A stretch of DNA of 50,015 nucleotides, taken from the NCBI GenBank assembly GCA_015488495.1, contig WFNS01000294.1, positions 1 through 50,015 of the forward strand. The letters run 5' to 3'. The notes under the pieces are model-generated. The model did no database searches. It had not been told where the DNA came from and worked only from the letters and a program-made list of their open reading frames with translations. Positions 2,725 through 45,828 of this stretch are shown in pieces. This DNA is from Gammaproteobacteria bacterium. GTDB taxonomy: Bacteria; Pseudomonadota; Gammaproteobacteria; Thiohalospirales; Thiohalospiraceae. The first letter of the stretch is position 1. Each line of letters starts with the position of its first letter. Both the position numbers and the translations under genes were made by a program.

Positions 2725-3023
2725 ACCGGGAACGTCTGCTGAAAGTATTGCTGGCTCCCATCATCTCCGAGAAAGCCAGCATGGCAACCGAAAAGAGCAA
2801 TCAGGTGGTATTCAAGGTCGTGCCCGATGCCACCAAACCGGAGGTCAAGGCGGCGGTCGAGCAGCTGTTCGAGGTCGAGGTCCAATCGGTCAACATCTGC
2901 AACATCAAAGGCAAGAGCAAGCGTTTTGGCATGCGTATGGGGCGGCGTAACGGAGTCAAGAAGGCGTACGTGACCCTGAAACCCGGCCAGGACATCGGGC
3001 TCATGACCGAAGAGCTGAGCTAA
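2721..3023 (+). CDS. rplW: 50S ribosomal protein L23
   Basis: 100 aa, [14 protein letters not shown]... L23 family; ATGA overlap with rplD. Confidence 0.95.
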
Positions 3024-3036
3024 CAGGAATCGGATT

Positions 3037-3864
3037 ATGGCAGTAGTCAAGGCAAAACCGACATCGGCAGGTCGCCGCTTCGTGGTCAAGGTGGTGACTC
3101 CGGAGCTTCACAAGGGGAAACCTTATGCCCCTCTGCTGGAGAAGAAGAGCAAGACCGGAGGGCGCAACAACCTGGGTCGCATCACCTGCCGCCACCAGGG
3201 CGGGGGGCACAAGCAGAAATACCGGATCATCGACTTCAAGCGTAACAAGGACGGGATTCCGGGAAAGGTGGAACGTATCGAATACGATCCCAATCGCAGC
3301 GCCCATATCGCCCTGATCCGCTATGCCGACGGGGAGCGTCGCTATATCATTGCGCCCAAGGATCTGAAGGCCGGCAGCGAGATCATTTCCGGACAGGGTG
3401 CTCCCATCAAGCCGGGCAACACCCTGCAGTTGCAGGACATTCCCGTGGGAACCACGGTGCACTGCGTGGAAATGCGTCCTGGCAAGGGAGCCCAGCTGGC
3501 GCGCGCTGCCGGGGCCGCCGTTCAGTTGGTGGCCCGCGAAGGCCGCCACGCCACGCTGCGCCTGCGTTCGGGCGAGATGCGCAAGGTGCCCGCGGAGTGC
3601 CGTGCCACTATCGGTGAGGTGAGCAACTCGGAGCATGGTCTGCGCAAGCTGGGCAAGGCCGGCGCCAAGCGTTGGCGCGGGGTTCGTCCGACGGTTCGTG
3701 GTGTGGCCATGAATCCCGTGGATCACCCTCACGGTGGTGGCGAAGGCCGTACTTCCGGGGGGCGGCATCCGGTATCGCCATGGGGCACCCCCACCAAGGG
3801 ATATCGGACCCGCAGCAACAAGCGTACTGATTCGATGATTGTTCGTCGCCGTCACGGCAAATAG
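3037..3864 (+). CDS. rplB: 50S ribosomal protein L2
   Basis: 275 aa with the conserved ...[17 protein letters not shown]... motif. Confidence 0.97.
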
Positions 3865-4514: not shown

Positions 4515-5195
4515 ATGGGTCAGAAAGTACATCCAACCGGAATCCGTCTGGGAATCGTCAAGGACTGGACCTCCAAATGGTACGCGGACTCCCGGAGCTA
4601 TCCGGAAGTGCTCAACAATGATCTGCAGGTGCGGGATTTTCTGCGCAAGAGGCTTGCCAAGGCGTCGGTCAGCCGTATCCAGATCGAGCGTCCGGCGCGC
4701 AACGTGAGGATTACCATCCACACGGCTCGTCCCGGTATCGTCATCGGCAAGAAAGGTGAGGATATCGAAAAGCTTCGTGCCGAAGTGGCCAAGATGGTCG
4801 GGATCCCGGTACATATCAACATCGAGGAGATTCGTAAACCGGAACTGGATGCCACCCTGGTTGCCCAGGGAATCGCCCAGCAGTTGGAGAAGCGAATCAT
4901 GTTCCGCCGTGCCATGAAGCGGGCGGTGGGCAACTCCATGCGTCTGGGTGCCCAGGGAGTCAGAATCAACGTGGCCGGCCGGTTGAATGGTGCCGAAATC
5001 GCGCGCAGTGAATGGTATCGGGAGGGGCGTGTACCGCTCCATACCTTGCGGGCAGATATCGACTACGGGGTGGCTACTGCCTACACCACCTATGGGGTTA
5101 TCGGTATAAAGGTCTGGATCTTCAAGGGAGAGGTGCTCGATACCTCCGAGCTGGCAGCTACCTCCCCAGAGAGAAAGACGGCTACTGCCAAATAG
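4515..5195 (+). CDS. rpsC: 30S ribosomal protein S3
   Basis: 226 aa, [18 protein letters not shown]... KH domain signature. Confidence 0.97.
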
Positions 5196-5207
5196 AGGTA
5201 AGCGACG

Positions 5208-5621
<414 letters not shown>

Positions 5622-15067: not shown

Positions 15068-15091
15068 ACGCCGGGGGTGACCCGGCGTTTT
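15068..15091 (+). terminator. Intrinsic terminator hairpin after rplQ, with its T-tract cut short by element E1
   Basis: ACGCCGGG (15068-15075) pairs with CCCGGCGT (15081-15088), loop GGTGA. Only TTTT follows before the palindromic element begins at 15091. Confidence 0.6.
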
Positions 15092-15433
15092 AGCACTCTT
15101 TCAAGGTAATAAATCAAGATTCAGTTGGCCTGTCAGCGTTCAGGGCAAGGCGCCCCTCGCAGCGAATGGCCGTCGCCCTTTGCATGAGGAGCGCCAACAC
15201 CCCGGGAGGGGATTGGGAGCGCGAAGCGCCCCCGAAGGGGTGGTGGAATACAGGGATGTATTCCATCAACGCCGCCATGGACGCTGACAGACCAACCCTT
15301 CGGGCGTCCCTGTGGTGTTCCGCCGCGGCGTTGCAGTGCTTGACAAGGGAACAACCATTGCCTGCGCACTGCGCCTTGCCGCGAAACACCACAGGGACGC
15401 TGAATCCTGATTTATTACCTTGAAAGAGTGCTA
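15091..15433 (-). mobile_element. Structured palindromic element copy E1 (343 bp; MITE-like or candidate structured RNA; inferred sense strand is minus)
   Basis: 34-bp terminal inverted repeat (15091-15124 vs 15400-15433) with one mismatch. Nested perfect or near-perfect hairpins at 15125-15295 and 15305-15399. Conserved core at 15328-15380 is shared with E3 and, in reverse orientation, with E2. Confidence 0.7.
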
Positions 15434-15443
15434 GTTTCCGGCC

Positions 15444-16112
15444 TCAGGAGAACCAGCGCGTGATCTCTTCTATCGGTTGACGGGTTTTCGGACGCCCTTC
15501 GCGAACCCGATAACCGAACGCAACCATGCAGGAGATACCGAATTTGTCGGTTTCCACCGAGAGGTGGTTCCTCAGCACGGCCTCTATCTTCTCCCGATCG
15601 AAGCCCTCGATGGGGCAGGAATCTACACCAAGCATTGCAGCGGTAGTCATCATGTTCCCCAGCGCGATGTAGGTCTGTTTGCAGGCCCAATCGAACATGG
15701 CCCGCTCGCTTTCCAGCAGCTTGAAATCGTTTTGCTGGAAGTTGCGATAGACCTCCCGCTTTTTCTCCATCACAGCTGCCGGCAGGCCCATTACATCGCG
15801 CATCATGTGGGTGATGTAGTCGCTGTCGTATCTCATGTAATGACTTTTTCGGGCCAGGATCACGATCAGATGACTGGCGGTCGGGATCTGTTTCTGCCCC
15901 CCCCAGGTGACCTCACGCAGTTTTTCCCGCAAAGTCGGCTGCTGGACGATGAGGTAGAGCCAGGGCTCAAAACCGAAGGAGCTGGGAGAGAGTCTGCCGG
16001 TCTGCAGAATCGTGTCGAAGATTTCTTCCGGGATTTTCTTTTCGGCATCGAACTCCTTGCAGGCATGACGGAAGTGATAGCTGTCGATGATTTCACTTGG
16101 TGAAATGGCCAT
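15444..16112 (-). CDS. Nitroreductase-family NAD(P)H oxidoreductase
   Basis: 222 aa, ...RHACKEFDAEKKIPEEIFDTILQTGRLSPSSFGFEPW... typical nitroreductase fold family. AAGAGGAGG RBS upstream. Confidence 0.85.
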   Translation of the reverse strand: MAISPSEIIDSYHFRHACKEFDAEKKIPEEIFDTILQTGRLSPSSFGFEPWLYLIVQQPTLREKLREVTWGGQKQIPTASHLIVILARKSHYMRYDSDYITHMMRDVMGLPAAVMEKKREVYRNFQQNDFKLLESERAMFDWACKQTYIALGNMMTTAAMLGVDSCPIEGFDREKIEAVLRNHLSVETDKFGISCMVAFGYRVREGRPKTRQPIEEITRWFS

Positions 16113-16152
16113 TGGTAAGCCTCCTCTTTTGGTAGCTCTCGAGCAGATACCA

Positions 16153-16382
16153 GGACAATCGATGGCAAAGTCTCATTCAGGATAGACGGCTGGTCGCAAG
16201 GCGCGGCGTCGCCACGGCACTCCCTTGGCGAGCCGACGCAACAGTGCGGACGTCGTCCAGACGCCCTCCGGTCGGGAGTGCCCCACGCGTCCCGGCTCGG
16301 TGTTGTAGCCGCTTGGCAAGGGGCCCCGCGCCTTGCTCCCGAACGTGGGGCACTCTGAATGAGGCTTTGCCATCGGTTGTCT
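16153..16382 (+). mobile_element. Structured palindromic element copy E2 (about 230 bp; inverted relative to E1; inferred sense strand is plus)
   Basis: About 28-bp terminal stem (16153-16180 vs 16355-16382) with three G-T pairs on the plus strand. Core boxes GCAAGGCGCGG (16196-16206) and CCGCGCCTTGC (16326-16336). The stem GCGTCG/CGACGC followed by AAC matches the reverse complement of the E1/E3 core. Confidence 0.6.
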
Positions 16383-16626
16383 CGCTAAGAGTATAGCCCG
16401 AATATCGTACCCGGCCGCTGAAAGCGCTCTCACACCGGTCCCGCGGCCCTTGTGCGGTATTTGCTCAATCGTAAACCGCTTGGGCCGTTGGCACCATCAT
16501 CAGGGCCCCGTACCCGGATGAAATATTCGGGGTAGGTGGTTTCGAATGGGATTAGCGGAGGAAGGGGCCGGCACATATTTTGCCTTTCTTCGAGTAAGCG
16601 CATATTACAAAAGAGGATCGAAGGTC

Positions 16627-17676: not shown

Positions 17677-18993
17677 TGCCGCCGGGTCGTTGCTCGGGCT
17701 TCCCGGTTTTCTCCGTCGCCGTCGCCGTGTGCGTTCATGACGACTCTGGCTGCCTCCTTTGCCTCCCCTGCCATGGGTCGGCCGCGGCGAGCTTCTCTTT
17801 TTCCGGACCGGGGGTTTGGGATTGATCAGCAGATCTGTGTCGATCTCGCGGGTCGGAATCCGGTGGCCGATGTAGGCTTCGATATCCATCAAGGAAAAGG
17901 CGTACTGTTCACAGGCGAAGCTGATCGCTTCCCCGCTGGCTCCAGCCCGCGCGGTACGACCGATGCGGTGGACATAGTCCTGTTCGTCCTGGGGCAGGTC
18001 ATAGTTGAAGACATGGGTCACGCCTTCAATGTGAAGTCCTCTGGCCGCCACATCGGTTGCCACCATGATGGAGAGTTCCCCCTCCTGAAAACGCCTCAAC
18101 AGGCTGATCCGCTTTTTCTGGGGCACGTCTCCGGAAAGTACCGCTGCCTTGAAACCGTTGCCTTCGAGATAACCCCAGACCCTCTCGGCCGCCTGTTTGG
18201 TGTTGACGAATATGATGCTGCGTTCGGGACGCAACCTGCCGAGCAATCCCAGCAGTAACGGAATCTTCTCCGTGTTGGCGGGATAGTAGATGCTCTCGTT
18301 GACGCGCGTGGCGGTGACCTGTTCGGCGTCGATCCGGATCAGCTTGGGATTGTTCATGTGCTCATAGGCGAGCTCGGTGACCCGGAACGAAAGTGTGGCG
18401 GAGAAGAGCAGACTCTGCCGCTTCTCTGGGGGTGGCATCCGCCGCAGCAGGAAGCGGATATCCTTGATGAACCCCAAATCGAACATGCGATCCGCCTCAT
18501 CCAGTACCACGACGTCGATGGACTTGAGGTGGAAGATCCGCTGCTTGAAGTAGTCGATGAGCCGTCCGGGGGTCCCGATGAGTATGTCGACCCCTTGCTC
18601 CAGCTGTTTGCGCTGGCTTTCATAGCCACTGCCGCCGTAAACCAGCCCCAGACGGAGGCCGGTGTGCTTGCCCAACAACTGTGCGTCCTTGTGTATCTGG
18701 ATGGCCAGCTCTCTGGTCGGTGCTAGGATCAACGCCCTTGGCTGGCGCCGTCCTTTGTCGGAGCCGGGGTTTGCCTTCAGAAGGCGAGTCATCACCGCAA
18801 GCAGAAACGCGGCCGTTTTACCTGTGCCGGTCTGTGCTTGTCCGGCTACATCCTGACCGGCCAATGCTGCCGGGAGCGTTTCCGCCTGGATGGGTGTACA
18901 GGTGGAAAAGCCCGCGTCGGCGACGCCTTGCATCAGCGGCGGTGGTAATTTGAATGATGAAAAAGGGGTTTCAGTTCGGTTTATTTCGGCCAT
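17665..18993 (-). CDS. rhlB: ATP-dependent DEAD-box RNA helicase RhlB
   Basis: Contains the Q motif, [15 protein letters not shown] and [10 protein letters not shown] motifs and an Arg-rich C-tail. It is divergent from trxA-rho, as in E. coli. Start taken at MAEINRTE (18993). Confidence 0.88.
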
Positions 18994-19132
18994 ACCGACA
19001 AAGAATATCAAAATTTACCCGCTTTGGGCTTGAAATCGTCTTCGCTTTGGGCTGAAATTAGGGATTATCGAACACGGCAGACGACGGATGTCCACCTCGG
19101 TCTGCCTGGGTAGCCAAAACGGAGGCAATAAA

Positions 19133-19459
19133 TTGAGCGACAAGATCGTCCACGTTACGGACAGCACGTTTGAGGAAGAGGTGATCAATTCGGAGCAGCC
19201 GGTATTGGTCGACTACTGGGCCGACTGGTGCGGGCCGTGCAAGATGATCGCCCCCATCCTGGATGAAATCACTGAAGAGTATGCTGGCAAGCTGAAGGTT
19301 GCCAAGCTAAACATCGACGAGAATCCGGCTACTCCGCCCAAGTTTGGCATTCGCGGCATTCCTACCCTGATGTTGTTCAAGGATGGCCATGTGGAGGCGA
19401 CCAAGGTGGGGGCCATGTCGAAATCACAACTGACCGCTTTTATTGATAGTAATCTGTAA
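19133..19459 (+). CDS. trxA: Thioredoxin 1
   Basis: [40 protein letters not shown]... (WCGPC active site). A TTG start at 19133 follows a GGAGG RBS and gives 108 aa. Confidence 0.92.
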
Positions 19460-45068: not shown

Positions 45069-45828
45069 GTGGCGTCGCCCCGTTATCCGGAAAAGGTGGT
45101 CTCTGGCGGACAGACCGGCGCGGACAGGGCGGCGCTGGACGTGGCGCTGATGCTTGGTATCCCCCGTGGTGGCTGGTGCCCCAAGGGCCGGCTCGCCGAA
45201 GATGGTGTCATTCCACCGTACTATCCGCTGCGGGAGAGTGACTCCCGTGACTATGCGTATCGCACCCGTCTCAACGTGCGCGACAGTGATGGTACGTTGA
45301 TCCTCCATCGTGGCGTTCTGAACGGCGGAACCGCTCTCACTCTCCGCTGCGCACGGGATCTGGGCAGACCGGTGTTCGTCGTTGATCTGGAACACCCACC
45401 GGAGCTGAATACGGTGCACGCGTGGTTGCGCCGCCATCACATCTGGGTGTTCATTGCCCCGACAACCAAATATTTACACCTTCAGCCATCCTGTGTCCGT
45501 CTCTGGCAAGGCATCGAAACGCCGCTGTAGCCGGGTACTACAGCAAGTTTCGATAACGCCGTCCAGAGACGGACACAGGATGGCCGGCCATCGATTCTCA
45601 AACAGTTGGGACGCCGGGTCTGCGCCAGTTCTGCGTTGCAGCACTTGGAAATAGTCATCACTATTCCCTGCGCGCTGCGCCTTGACCTGACGCAGACCCG
45701 GCGTCCTGAAGGTGCAAATATTTGGTTGTCGGGGCAATAATGTCGCGGGGCCGCGGGAGAGCGGCTCCCCGGGGATTCATCGGGAAGCCGTGCGTTTTCT
45801 GGAGCAGCTACTGGGTCAGCCGAAATAG
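45069..45828 (+). pseudogene. YpsA/SLOG-like (putative molybdenum-carrier, PF12694-like) gene interrupted by element E3
   Basis: The 5' part at 45069-45452 encodes ...VVSGGQTGADRAALDVALMLGIPRGGWCPKGRLAEDG...HHIWVF. The 3' part at 45739-45828 encodes NVAGPRESGSPGIHREAVRFLEQLLGQPK* in a +1-shifted frame. Deleting 45453-45738 (286 nt) joins them in frame. As it stands, the frame runs into the element and stops at 45530. Confidence 0.75.
45453..45738 (-). mobile_element. Structured palindromic element copy E3 (286 bp; same orientation as E1; inserted in a coding sequence)
   Basis: 33-bp terminal inverted repeat (45453-45485 vs 45706-45738) with one mismatch. Hairpins at 45486-45583 (21-bp perfect stem) and 45610-45705 (15-bp perfect stem). 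Conserved core at 45633-45685 matches E1 15328-15380. Confidence 0.75.

Follow-up and report, generated by a model that had tools for sequence, protein, structure and literature searches.

Paired strand-specific hairpins mark a family of non-coding mobile elements in Gammaproteobacteria that is most likely moved by IS630-type transposases

Contig WFNS01000294.1 of a Thiohalospiraceae genome assembly (Gammaproteobacteria; GCA_015488495.1) carries three large nested palindromes, here called E1, E2 and E3, within the 50,015 nucleotides that were analyzed (the window). A search of the whole window found no other inverted repeat of similar size and quality. An initial annotation, made from the sequence alone, had placed three nested palindromes at these positions, where we find them as well, and had read them as copies of a structured RNA or single-stranded DNA. 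The question raised by this locus is whether the palindromes are genes for such a molecule or belong to mobile DNA. As single strands, the elements are predicted to fold with energies of -221.6 (E1), -133.7 (E2) and -203.4 (E3) kcal/mol, in each case better than every dinucleotide shuffle (z-scores of -17.3, -8.2 and -20.6, respectively). However, the elements are non-coding, bounded by terminal inverted repeats (TIRs), flanked by TA, present in multiple copies and polymorphic between strains, and they are thus MITEs, or miniature inverted-repeat transposable elements. We describe them as a new family that is widespread, apparently undescribed, and most likely moved in trans by DDE transposases of the IS630 / Tc1-mariner type. 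The family, a new superfamily of a known kind of element, carries an unusual conserved hairpin cargo.

Anatomy and distribution of the elements

All six half-elements in the window fit TTCAG, 15-20 nt and [G/T]CAAGGC. One genome per bacterial species was scanned with the pattern TTCAGN{14,22}CAAGGCGCRGYGN{20,40}GCAAC and at least 119 loci matched (contigs and loci are numbered here with the prefix L). Ninety-three of the 119 loci listed were judged to carry true elements. The same scan of viral contigs returned only four chance matches, in coding DNA. The canonical element is 266-269 bp long and consists of a TA, a TIR of 31-33 bp ending in TTCAG, a hairpin module, a linker with the consensus CCCNNNGGG, an inverted module, the second TIR and another TA. 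Once reverse-complemented, the second module can be aligned to the first over its full length. In both, GGCAAGGCGC is followed by a variable 5-bp stem, then by GCAGSSAATGG..CCCTTKKCAA, by the complementary 5 bp and by GCAACGCC. A conserved core with covarying stems is present, as the initial annotation had stated, but it is held by both hairpins in opposite orientation and not by one of them only. The boxes GCAAGGCGC and GCGCCTTGC, which had been proposed to form a long-range or pseudoknot pairing, match each other as a trivial outcome of the inverted duplication. AACGCC and GGCGTT, which were not mentioned in that annotation, are likewise complementary because the same core is duplicated in inverted orientation.

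Each module folds into a variable outer stem of 17-19 bp followed by an unpaired CAA on the 5' side and a GGC:GCC helix with an AAC bulge. Beyond these come a variable stem of 7 bp and an internal loop, GCAG/CAA, and the apical stem is GCAAKGG:CCMTTGY. Module length is 94-98 nt in 88 of 95 cases. A covariance model of this inner hairpin, a check that the initial annotation had suggested, was built from an alignment of 88 modules, all set in the inward orientation and given an RNAalifold consensus structure, and was run on the window and on the 93 loci. It found exactly six modules in the window, two per element, with E-values of 6e-21 to 2e-4 and scores of 29-99 bits. The left module was always on the + strand and the right module always on the - strand, and the opposite strand of the best modules scored only about 15 bits. 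The 93 loci hold at least 166 modules, and every adjacent pair runs + then -, with a gap of 9 nt (27 nt in the E3 type).

The features of the three window elements are as follows. Boundaries of the TIRs were read by eye; an automatic boundary finder over- or under-extended them.

15091..15433, no strand: E1, complete element of the E1a subfamily, 343 bp including the flanking TA at 15091-15092 and 15432-15433
15093..15124, + strand: left TIR of E1, GCACTCTTTCAAGGTAATAAATCAAGATTCAG, ending in the family-wide TTCAG, with a single mismatch to the right arm (15117/15407)
15125..15295, + strand: left hairpin module of E1, folding on the inward-reading + strand; model match at 15125-15221 on +, 41.7 bits
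15296..15304, no strand: central linker of E1, CCCTTCGGG (family consensus CCCNNNGGG)
15305..15399, - strand: right hairpin module of E1; model match at 15304-15399 on -, 99 bits, E 6e-21 (15.5 bits on the + strand)
15400..15431, - strand: right TIR of E1, from repeat comparison across copies
16148..16387, no strand: E2, old decaying element of the E2 subfamily (TA|CCAGGACAATCGAT...), flanking TA at 16148-16149 and 16386-16387
16150-16180 and 16355-16385, no strand: TIRs of E2, from repeat comparison
16176..16263, + strand: left hairpin module of E2, degenerate; model match of 28.8 bits, E 2e-4
16276..16356, - strand: right hairpin module of E2, degenerate, with its apical part deleted; model match of 28.8 bits, E 2e-4
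45452..45739, no strand: E3, complete element of the E3 subfamily, with junctions CA at 45452-45453 and TA at 45738-45739
45454-45485 and 45706-45737, no strand: TIRs of E3, from repeat comparison
45486..45583, + strand: left hairpin module of E3; model match at 45487-45583 on +, 66.9 bits (15.6 bits on the - strand)
45610..45705, - strand: right hairpin module of E3; model match at 45609-45705 on -, 86.2 bits

The core of the right E1 module is canonical (GGCAAGGCGC-AGTGC-GCAGGCAATGG..CCCTTGTCAA-GCACT-GCAACGCC). E1 reaches 343 bp because its left module holds an insertion of about 75 nt (roughly 15193-15267) that is common to L098. This insertion is missing from the canonical copies L122 and L036 and may be a nested mini-insertion. 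In E1 and L098 (7122-7199) it comprises about 71-75 nt in the form of three small hairpins, placed where one module has its GC|AAC bulge. A near-identical strain (L002, about 1050-1060) has a 6-nt deletion, GGTGGT, inside the insertion relative to window positions 15238-15243. GC-rich palindromes give rise to open reading frames (ORFs) within elements, but these are artefacts and show no conservation across the covarying stems. A 91-92 aa "protein" has been called inside E1 in public assemblies (L001 1436-1714; L002 913-1188; L127 3524-3799), and this gene call is almost certainly spurious.

The terminal stems had been described as copy-specific and unrelated to one another, but each is a subfamily TIR that is conserved in other genomes. 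The E1-type terminus TA|GYACTCTTTCAAGGTAATAAAT..TTCAG is also found in L022, L036, L038, L083, L085, L095, L098 and L122, and E1 is about 95% identical over its full length to L098, L122 and L036, which come from other species-level gammaproteobacterial metagenome-assembled genomes (MAGs) and lie in unrelated genomic contexts. This similarity suggests that the E1a subfamily has spread horizontally, and recently, among deep-sea Gammaproteobacteria. E2 groups with L007, L043, L056, L065 and L097 (TA|CYAAGACAATCGAT), and E3 groups with the TA|TTAACCCGGCAAC set (L016, L045 and others). Within a subfamily the TIRs are common to different genomes and the flanks diverge immediately outside the TA on both sides, and across subfamilies the interior of the elements is more conserved than the TIRs. 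Copies within a genome are near-identical, and at least 11 loci come from a single MAG (JALSGV01). Most carriers are Gammaproteobacteria, including Chromatiales, Thiohalomonas, Thiohalobacter, Thioalkalivibrio, Sedimenticola, Woeseiaceae, Salinisphaera, Ca. Thiodiazotropha, Psychromonadaceae and Parashewanella; some are found elsewhere, in Ca. Brocadiia, Hyphomicrobiaceae and Burkholderiales.

The initial annotation was also correct that this is a real repeat family, and the family has no match in Rfam. A search over the whole window gave nothing at the gathering thresholds, and in E-value mode it gave only generic-hairpin miRNA models well below threshold. BLAST of E1 or of canonical copies found nothing in E. 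coli genomes or phages, and nothing among plasmids except for the copy on an Azotobacter plasmid that is described below. No description of this family was found in the literature, either by sequence strings or by topic, and the MITEs of Thiomargarita (PMC4853749) were ruled out as a match because of their different ends and 10-bp duplication. The annotation's own alternative, a known MITE or repeat, applies in kind, given the TA flanks, TIRs, presence/absence alleles and the similarity of some TIRs to IS630 ends, although no described family was matched. It had also proposed a search for an associated reverse transcriptase, transposase or nuclease. An all-against-all BLAST of 952 ORFs from the 93 loci identified no linked protein family that recurs beside the elements.

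Mobility at orthologous sites

Orthologous loci of related strains were taken from contigs encoding exactly the RplQ and redoxin proteins of the window. E1 begins directly after the rplQ terminator hairpin and is separated by 10 nt from the nitroreductase stop codon, the placement already given in the initial annotation. It is absent from the orthologous site in L128, where the spacer between rplQ and the nitroreductase gene is 107 nt. The E3 site is filled in the window, L136, L137 and L138 and empty in L140-L142, which encode a full-length cpYpsA of 157 aa. At both polymorphic sites the net gain is equal to the element plus 2 bp, and TA is found at both ends of most copies. On a hydrothermal-vent metagenome contig (L144, about 1040-1240), E3 occupies the same site in inverted orientation with one module deleted. 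An A/G polymorphism of the terminal repeat travels with its module in this copy, and therefore either the whole element was flipped, by excision and re-insertion, or recombination took place in the outer 23 bp of the repeats.

E2 has a different history: every related strain carries it, L128 among them. The copy is old and decaying, with 9.9% divergence from its counterpart in L128 as compared to 3.2% for adjacent intergenic DNA and 2.7-4.5% for neighbouring genes, and the changes in its terminal repeats are uncompensated. Derivatives found elsewhere include one-module forms, TIR-only remnants and solo repeats. In L042 (1961-2000) and L055 (1037-1076), for example, the interior has been deleted and a 39-bp palindrome of two E3-type TIRs is all that is left. 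In L136 and L138, an identical C->T change distinguishes both TIR arms of E3 from those in the window (gcaTcttcag / ctgaagAtgc), which suggests conversion between the arms or from another copy.

Three larger arrangements were considered and rejected. A pair of TIRs 2 kb apart in L031 is not an autonomous copy but a one-module derivative (3150-3323, joined at GCCGG microhomology) and a solo TIR (5175-5209) around host genes, the genes between them being PilZ-like and TraB-like. In L063, modules that converge at a distance of 1.6 kb belong to two separate copies that enclose efp. In the window, E1 and E2 bracket the nitroreductase gene (15444-16112, - strand), but they do not form a composite transposon because their subfamilies differ, E2 is an old, fixed copy, and L128 has no E1.

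The gene neighbours of the window elements are rplQ, the nitroreductase gene, a fliK-like gene, cpYpsA and the redoxin gene. E3 lies inside the 3' part of cpYpsA (ORF 45069-45530). In empty alleles the native product has 157 aa and the gene overlaps the end of the redoxin gene; in the window the product has 153 aa, and its C-terminus, IAPTTKYLHLQPSCVRLWQGIETPL, is encoded by E3. Two MAG assemblies (L138 and L139) contain runs of N exactly at the E3 position, and L138 also has a duplicated flank; E3 is in these cases a cause of scaffolding gaps or misassemblies. Contig L002 stops within E2, a sign that assembly broke off at the repeat.

Stems under selection, the likely transposase and other readings

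In order to determine which stems are selected, and on which strand, mismatches were counted in the ungapped stems of 56 non-identical full elements, with one count per event by local context. Mismatches in the terminal repeat comprised 41 G.U, 45 A.C and 54 transversions, and in one subfamily the same four differences between arms are fixed in six copies. The terminal "stem" is thus a pair of transposon TIRs, to which a transposase would bind, and is not selected for pairing. The outer stem of the pattern-matched module had 61 G.U, 13 A.C and 10 transversions, whereas that of the other module, read on the same strand, had 11, 46 and 13, respectively. In the alignment of 88 modules, RNAalifold gave 31 pairs with compensatory changes in 30 of them, and 89.5% of cells were paired, as compared to 60.8% in shuffled alignments (none of 500 as high) and 35-48% in slid controls. 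The inward strand had 264 G.U against 61 A.C cells, or 179 against 60 when the two columns in which U.G is the commonest state are removed. Each module folds best on the strand that runs 5' to 3' from its own end of the element to the centre, and G.U wobbles are tolerated or conserved on that strand only. Selection for pairing of the inner hairpins in a single-stranded state is supported, because they show both covariation and a strand-specific excess of G.U over A.C. Since the bias is mirrored between the two halves, a single sense transcript across the element is ruled out.

These counts uphold the proposal of the initial annotation that an RNA or single-stranded DNA fold is selected, as far as the inner hairpins are concerned, and contradict the single sense strand that went with it. 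G.U had been said to fall always on the same element strand; in the 56 elements the TIRs are unbiased and the inner stems are oppositely biased. Every mismatch site that it listed is as described, but five of the seven are in TIRs, a T.G at 15140/15280 on the + strand was missed, and transversions at the tops of stems contradict the statement that every mismatch is a transition.

The ends of the elements bear on the likely transposase. A TA target, a 2-bp duplication and a preference for CTAG are hallmarks of the IS630 / Tc1-mariner group (PMC2170065, citing Tenzen and Ohtsubo 1991). In the hairpin-module subfamilies with a TIR starting in GT, most arms have a C before the TA. A 4-bp duplication of CTAG, as in IS5-like elements, is excluded: in L030, L084, L087, L090 and L098 the outer bases on the left differ from those on the right. 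On plasmid pAcX50f of Azotobacter chroococcum NCIMB 8003 (NZ_CP010421.1 about 17950-19400; L145 2948-4400), a full MITE copy and an IS630-family insertion sequence (IS) lie back to back. The MITE copy (L145 about 2948-3217) has modules at 2982-3077 (+) and 3088-3182 (-), and the adjoining IS, which is 1.2 kb long and frameshifted, has one CTAG in common with it. The IS contains HTH_32 / HTH_29 and DDE_3 domains, matches the NF033545 model and has ISPna1 among its relatives. Both the MITE and the IS are absent from the distributed gene table of the plasmid. Ends of the IS630-family elements read cTA|GTGTCGCGTCATG.. and cTA|GTGTCTCGTCACGCCTCAAACGTCGGATATAG, with cTA|GTGTC...CGGATATAG as the form of the ISPna1 group. 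Compared with the TIR of L085b, these ends gave a score of 13 against a shuffle mean of 4.7, and 1 of 200 shuffles scored as high; for other TIR subfamilies the corresponding counts were 3 of 200 (H1), 1 of 200 (E1c) and 5 of 200 (L090). The IS630-family elements examined (L145-L147) have no hairpin modules. We propose that transposases of this type insert the elements at TA, with a preference for CTAG, and duplicate the TA, and that the modules would be cargo, as the one related autonomous IS630-family element examined lacks them.

Several observations weigh against this assignment or against parts of it. The likeness of the E1a, E2 and E3 TIRs to the three IS630 ends examined was not significant, and no autonomous element with TIRs matching these three subfamilies was found, including in the 8-kb loci. 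Empty alleles read TG at the E1 site (in a relative that is about 10% diverged) and CA at the E3 site, where TA would be expected, and the junctions of E3 in the window are CA..TA and not TA..TA. The codon to the left of E3 (45447-45453) is CTC in empty alleles, TTC in the window and TCT in L137 and L144. The junction at this site is CA or TA, and otherwise near-identical strains have three differences within 4 nt. As a result of these atypical bases, the 2-bp duplication is shown by length and by the TA consensus and not by a clean before/after pair. A cut-and-paste DDE element has no obvious need of strand-specific hairpins, and IS630 elements transpose without them. Furthermore, some columns hold G.U more often than any other state, and about 13% of outer-stem pairs are G.U, an RNA-like pattern; the sequences do not separate action as RNA from action as single-stranded DNA.

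A gene-less element is selectable only via its transposition rate or the harm it does, and E2 is not conserved; a role in cis propagation is therefore favoured. Because E2 decays faster than its surroundings, the structural constraint is probably on the proliferating lineage and not a matter of host benefit, although this point comes from a single locus. In Tc1-mariner-type transposition the first nick falls on the non-transferred strand, two nucleotides in from the end (PMC2170065). The inward-reading foldable strand of the hairpin-module elements would be this 5'-ended, non-transferred strand at each end, and we would guess that the modules take the form of folded single strands during transposition and act in cis. 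One use may be to draw together the ends of a stiff DNA of about 270 bp, another to open these ends for cleavage of the second strand, and a third to sense the passage of a replication fork and couple excision to it; the first module that a fork meets would always be the one foldable on the lagging-strand template. A bolder version, which we consider speculative and rather unlikely, is that the paired inward hairpins, read as folded non-transferred strands, are the essential working part of a new MITE class. Their partners might then be the transposase, a host factor or the replication machinery, and the hairpins might let an otherwise too-short element transpose or couple its excision to the fork. 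If true, this would be a previously undescribed structure-dependent, strand-specific layer atop Tc1/mariner-type transposition.

The strongest alternative is that the modules act as RNA in what is still a MITE, in which case transcripts entering from outside would fold the first module they meet, as an insulator, processing site or 3'-end stabiliser. Parallels exist in the Correia/NEMIS hairpins cut by RNase III, in REP and ERIC sequences that act as stabilisers, and in the protection of ISs from outside transcription. Inward transcription from both sides predicts exactly the mirrored G.U bias, G.U outnumbers every other state at conserved columns 16/90 and 17/89 and also occurs often at 42/64 and 43/63, and a wobble frequency of about 13% is RNA-like. 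E1 is also placed between convergent genes at a terminator, and long stem-loops with such roles are known from bacterial MITE transcripts (PMC2229807). On the other hand, scans of the three window copies predicted neither promoter-like nor terminator-like sites, and the modules are not followed by a U-tract. Insertions are not biased to gene 3' ends (16 tandem, 8 divergent and 5 convergent contexts, from crude ORF calls that are indicative only). The rate at which E2 outpaces neighbouring intergenic DNA speaks against an RNA function maintained by the host, and a gene-less element would gain nothing unless the RNA lowers the cost of insertion. We regard this reading as a real possibility, though not a likely one.

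It is improbable, in our estimate, that the palindromes are functionless, with stems that arise by template switching or gene conversion, bursts from master copies, and covariation that reflects mutation and copying. In its favour, mutation by template-switch correction is well established for quasi-palindromes, near-identical copies are found within a genome, and the concerted C->T change in both TIR arms of L136 and L138 fits conversion. Homogenisation of arms would nevertheless give no 4-5:1 excess of G.U that flips between halves. It also offers no reason for conserved wobble columns, or for unpaired CAA, AAC and GCAG that persist across sequence-unrelated stems, and it would not keep modules at 94-98 nt.

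A further possibility is that the modules are the true recombination sites, either for a HUH/Y1 transposase (similar to REP/REPIN-RAYT) or for a tyrosine recombinase (similar to attC), with the TIRs secondary. Bulged, strand-specific hairpins with conserved unpaired bases and variable stems would suit such enzymes, and the inverted pairs resemble those in REPINs and BIMEs. We think this very improbable, since the TA flanks, the 2-bp net gain and the constant TIRs of 31-33 bp point to a DDE mechanism. In addition, the modules lie 33 nt inside the ends, no neighbour gene recurs in the 93 loci, no conserved GTAG-type head directly precedes a short palindrome, and there are no attC R'/R'' boxes.

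Least credible of the full readings is that of the initial annotation, a single structured non-coding RNA or single-stranded DNA of 230-340 nt, with a closing stem of 28-34 bp, two hairpins, a long-range pairing and one sense strand. The whole-element folds (z -8 to -21), the covarying inner stems, and six of the seven listed window mismatches, which are G.U on the strand named, all agree with it. However, the terminal stem has no wobble bias, many transversions and, in one subfamily, fixed asymmetry between arms; the two inner stems are oppositely biased on any one strand; covariance-model matches always come as +/- pairs; and the supposed long-range boxes are the same core inverted. The TA flanks, presence/absence alleles and in-situ inversion mark mobile DNA, and E2 is not conserved. 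A retron (msr-msd, with long a1/a2 stems as in Mx162) was rejected, as the neighbourhood holds no reverse transcriptase gene and pairing of the terminal repeat is not under selection.

The family abounds in sulfur-oxidising Gammaproteobacteria from marine and sediment settings, among them symbionts such as Ca. Thiodiazotropha. While unannotated, it draws spurious ORF calls, breaks assemblies and changes gene ends, as with the C-terminus of cpYpsA, so that a family model would help annotation and could also be used as a strain-level marker of recent mobility. It is an unusually clean case of a MITE whose interior is more conserved than its TIRs and holds covarying, mirrored-strand hairpins; if these assist transposition, they represent a structural requirement that is absent from autonomous IS630 elements. 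More generally, a palindromic mobile element known from only a few copies can be mistaken for the gene of a structured RNA, and a comparison of G.U and A.C mismatches stem by stem separates the two.

Comparison with known systems

Two systems resemble the hairpin-module family in logic only. REPs, REPINs and BIMEs with their RAYT proteins also have paired inverted imperfect hairpins, a functional strand that alternates and single-stranded recognition. REPs measure 20-40 nt and have a GT[A/G]G head; they lack TIRs and a TA duplication and flank a RAYT gene, whereas the modules described here are 95 nt long, lie 33 nt inside TA-flanked TIRs and have no recurring adjacent gene that we could find. 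Integron attC sites likewise keep their structure while the stem varies, with conserved extrahelical bases and a strand-selective fold. They are 57-141 nt long, carry R''/R' core sites and are arrayed by an integrase, but they are not found in inverted pairs, and both TIRs and TA flanks are lacking. The conserved GCAAC of the modules does not fit RYYYAAC, and the elements are solitary with no integrase nearby.

Other families share more of the architecture. CIR elements of Caulobacter and Brucella have two long inverted-repeat arms with a linker and TA termini (PMC2229807), but they lack TIRs, carry a GANTC methylation motif and are unrelated in sequence, and mirrored strand-specific covariation has not been reported for them. 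Correia/NEMIS elements of Neisseria have TA termini, a target duplication, TIRs of about 24-26 bp and internal-deletion variants, and they are mostly intergenic, are transcribed into long hairpins and have no transposase identified in their host (PMC2229807). The Correia hairpin is formed by pairing of TIR with TIR and is cut by RNase III, whereas in the hairpin-module family two inner hairpins are selected and TIR pairing is not. The two families have no sequence similarity, and the hairpin-module family spans several gammaproteobacterial orders and beyond.

Closest in mechanism are the IS630 / Tc1-mariner elements (IS630, ISY100 and ISPna1) and MITEs such as RUP, which accompanies IS630-Spn1. 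The CTAG preference and TIRs of about 30 bp are shared with the IS630 group, as would be insertion at TA with a 2-bp duplication. Occasional non-canonical junctions are a further likeness, and ISY100 produces them in vitro (PMC2170065). RUP was tied to its IS by TIR similarity and TA targets (PMC2229807), and the same argument is applied here, in that the ends of the ISPna1 group resemble several TIR subfamilies of the hairpin-module family. Unlike RUP, which is 107 bp long, the hairpin-module elements measure about 267 bp and have an interior that is more conserved than their TIRs.

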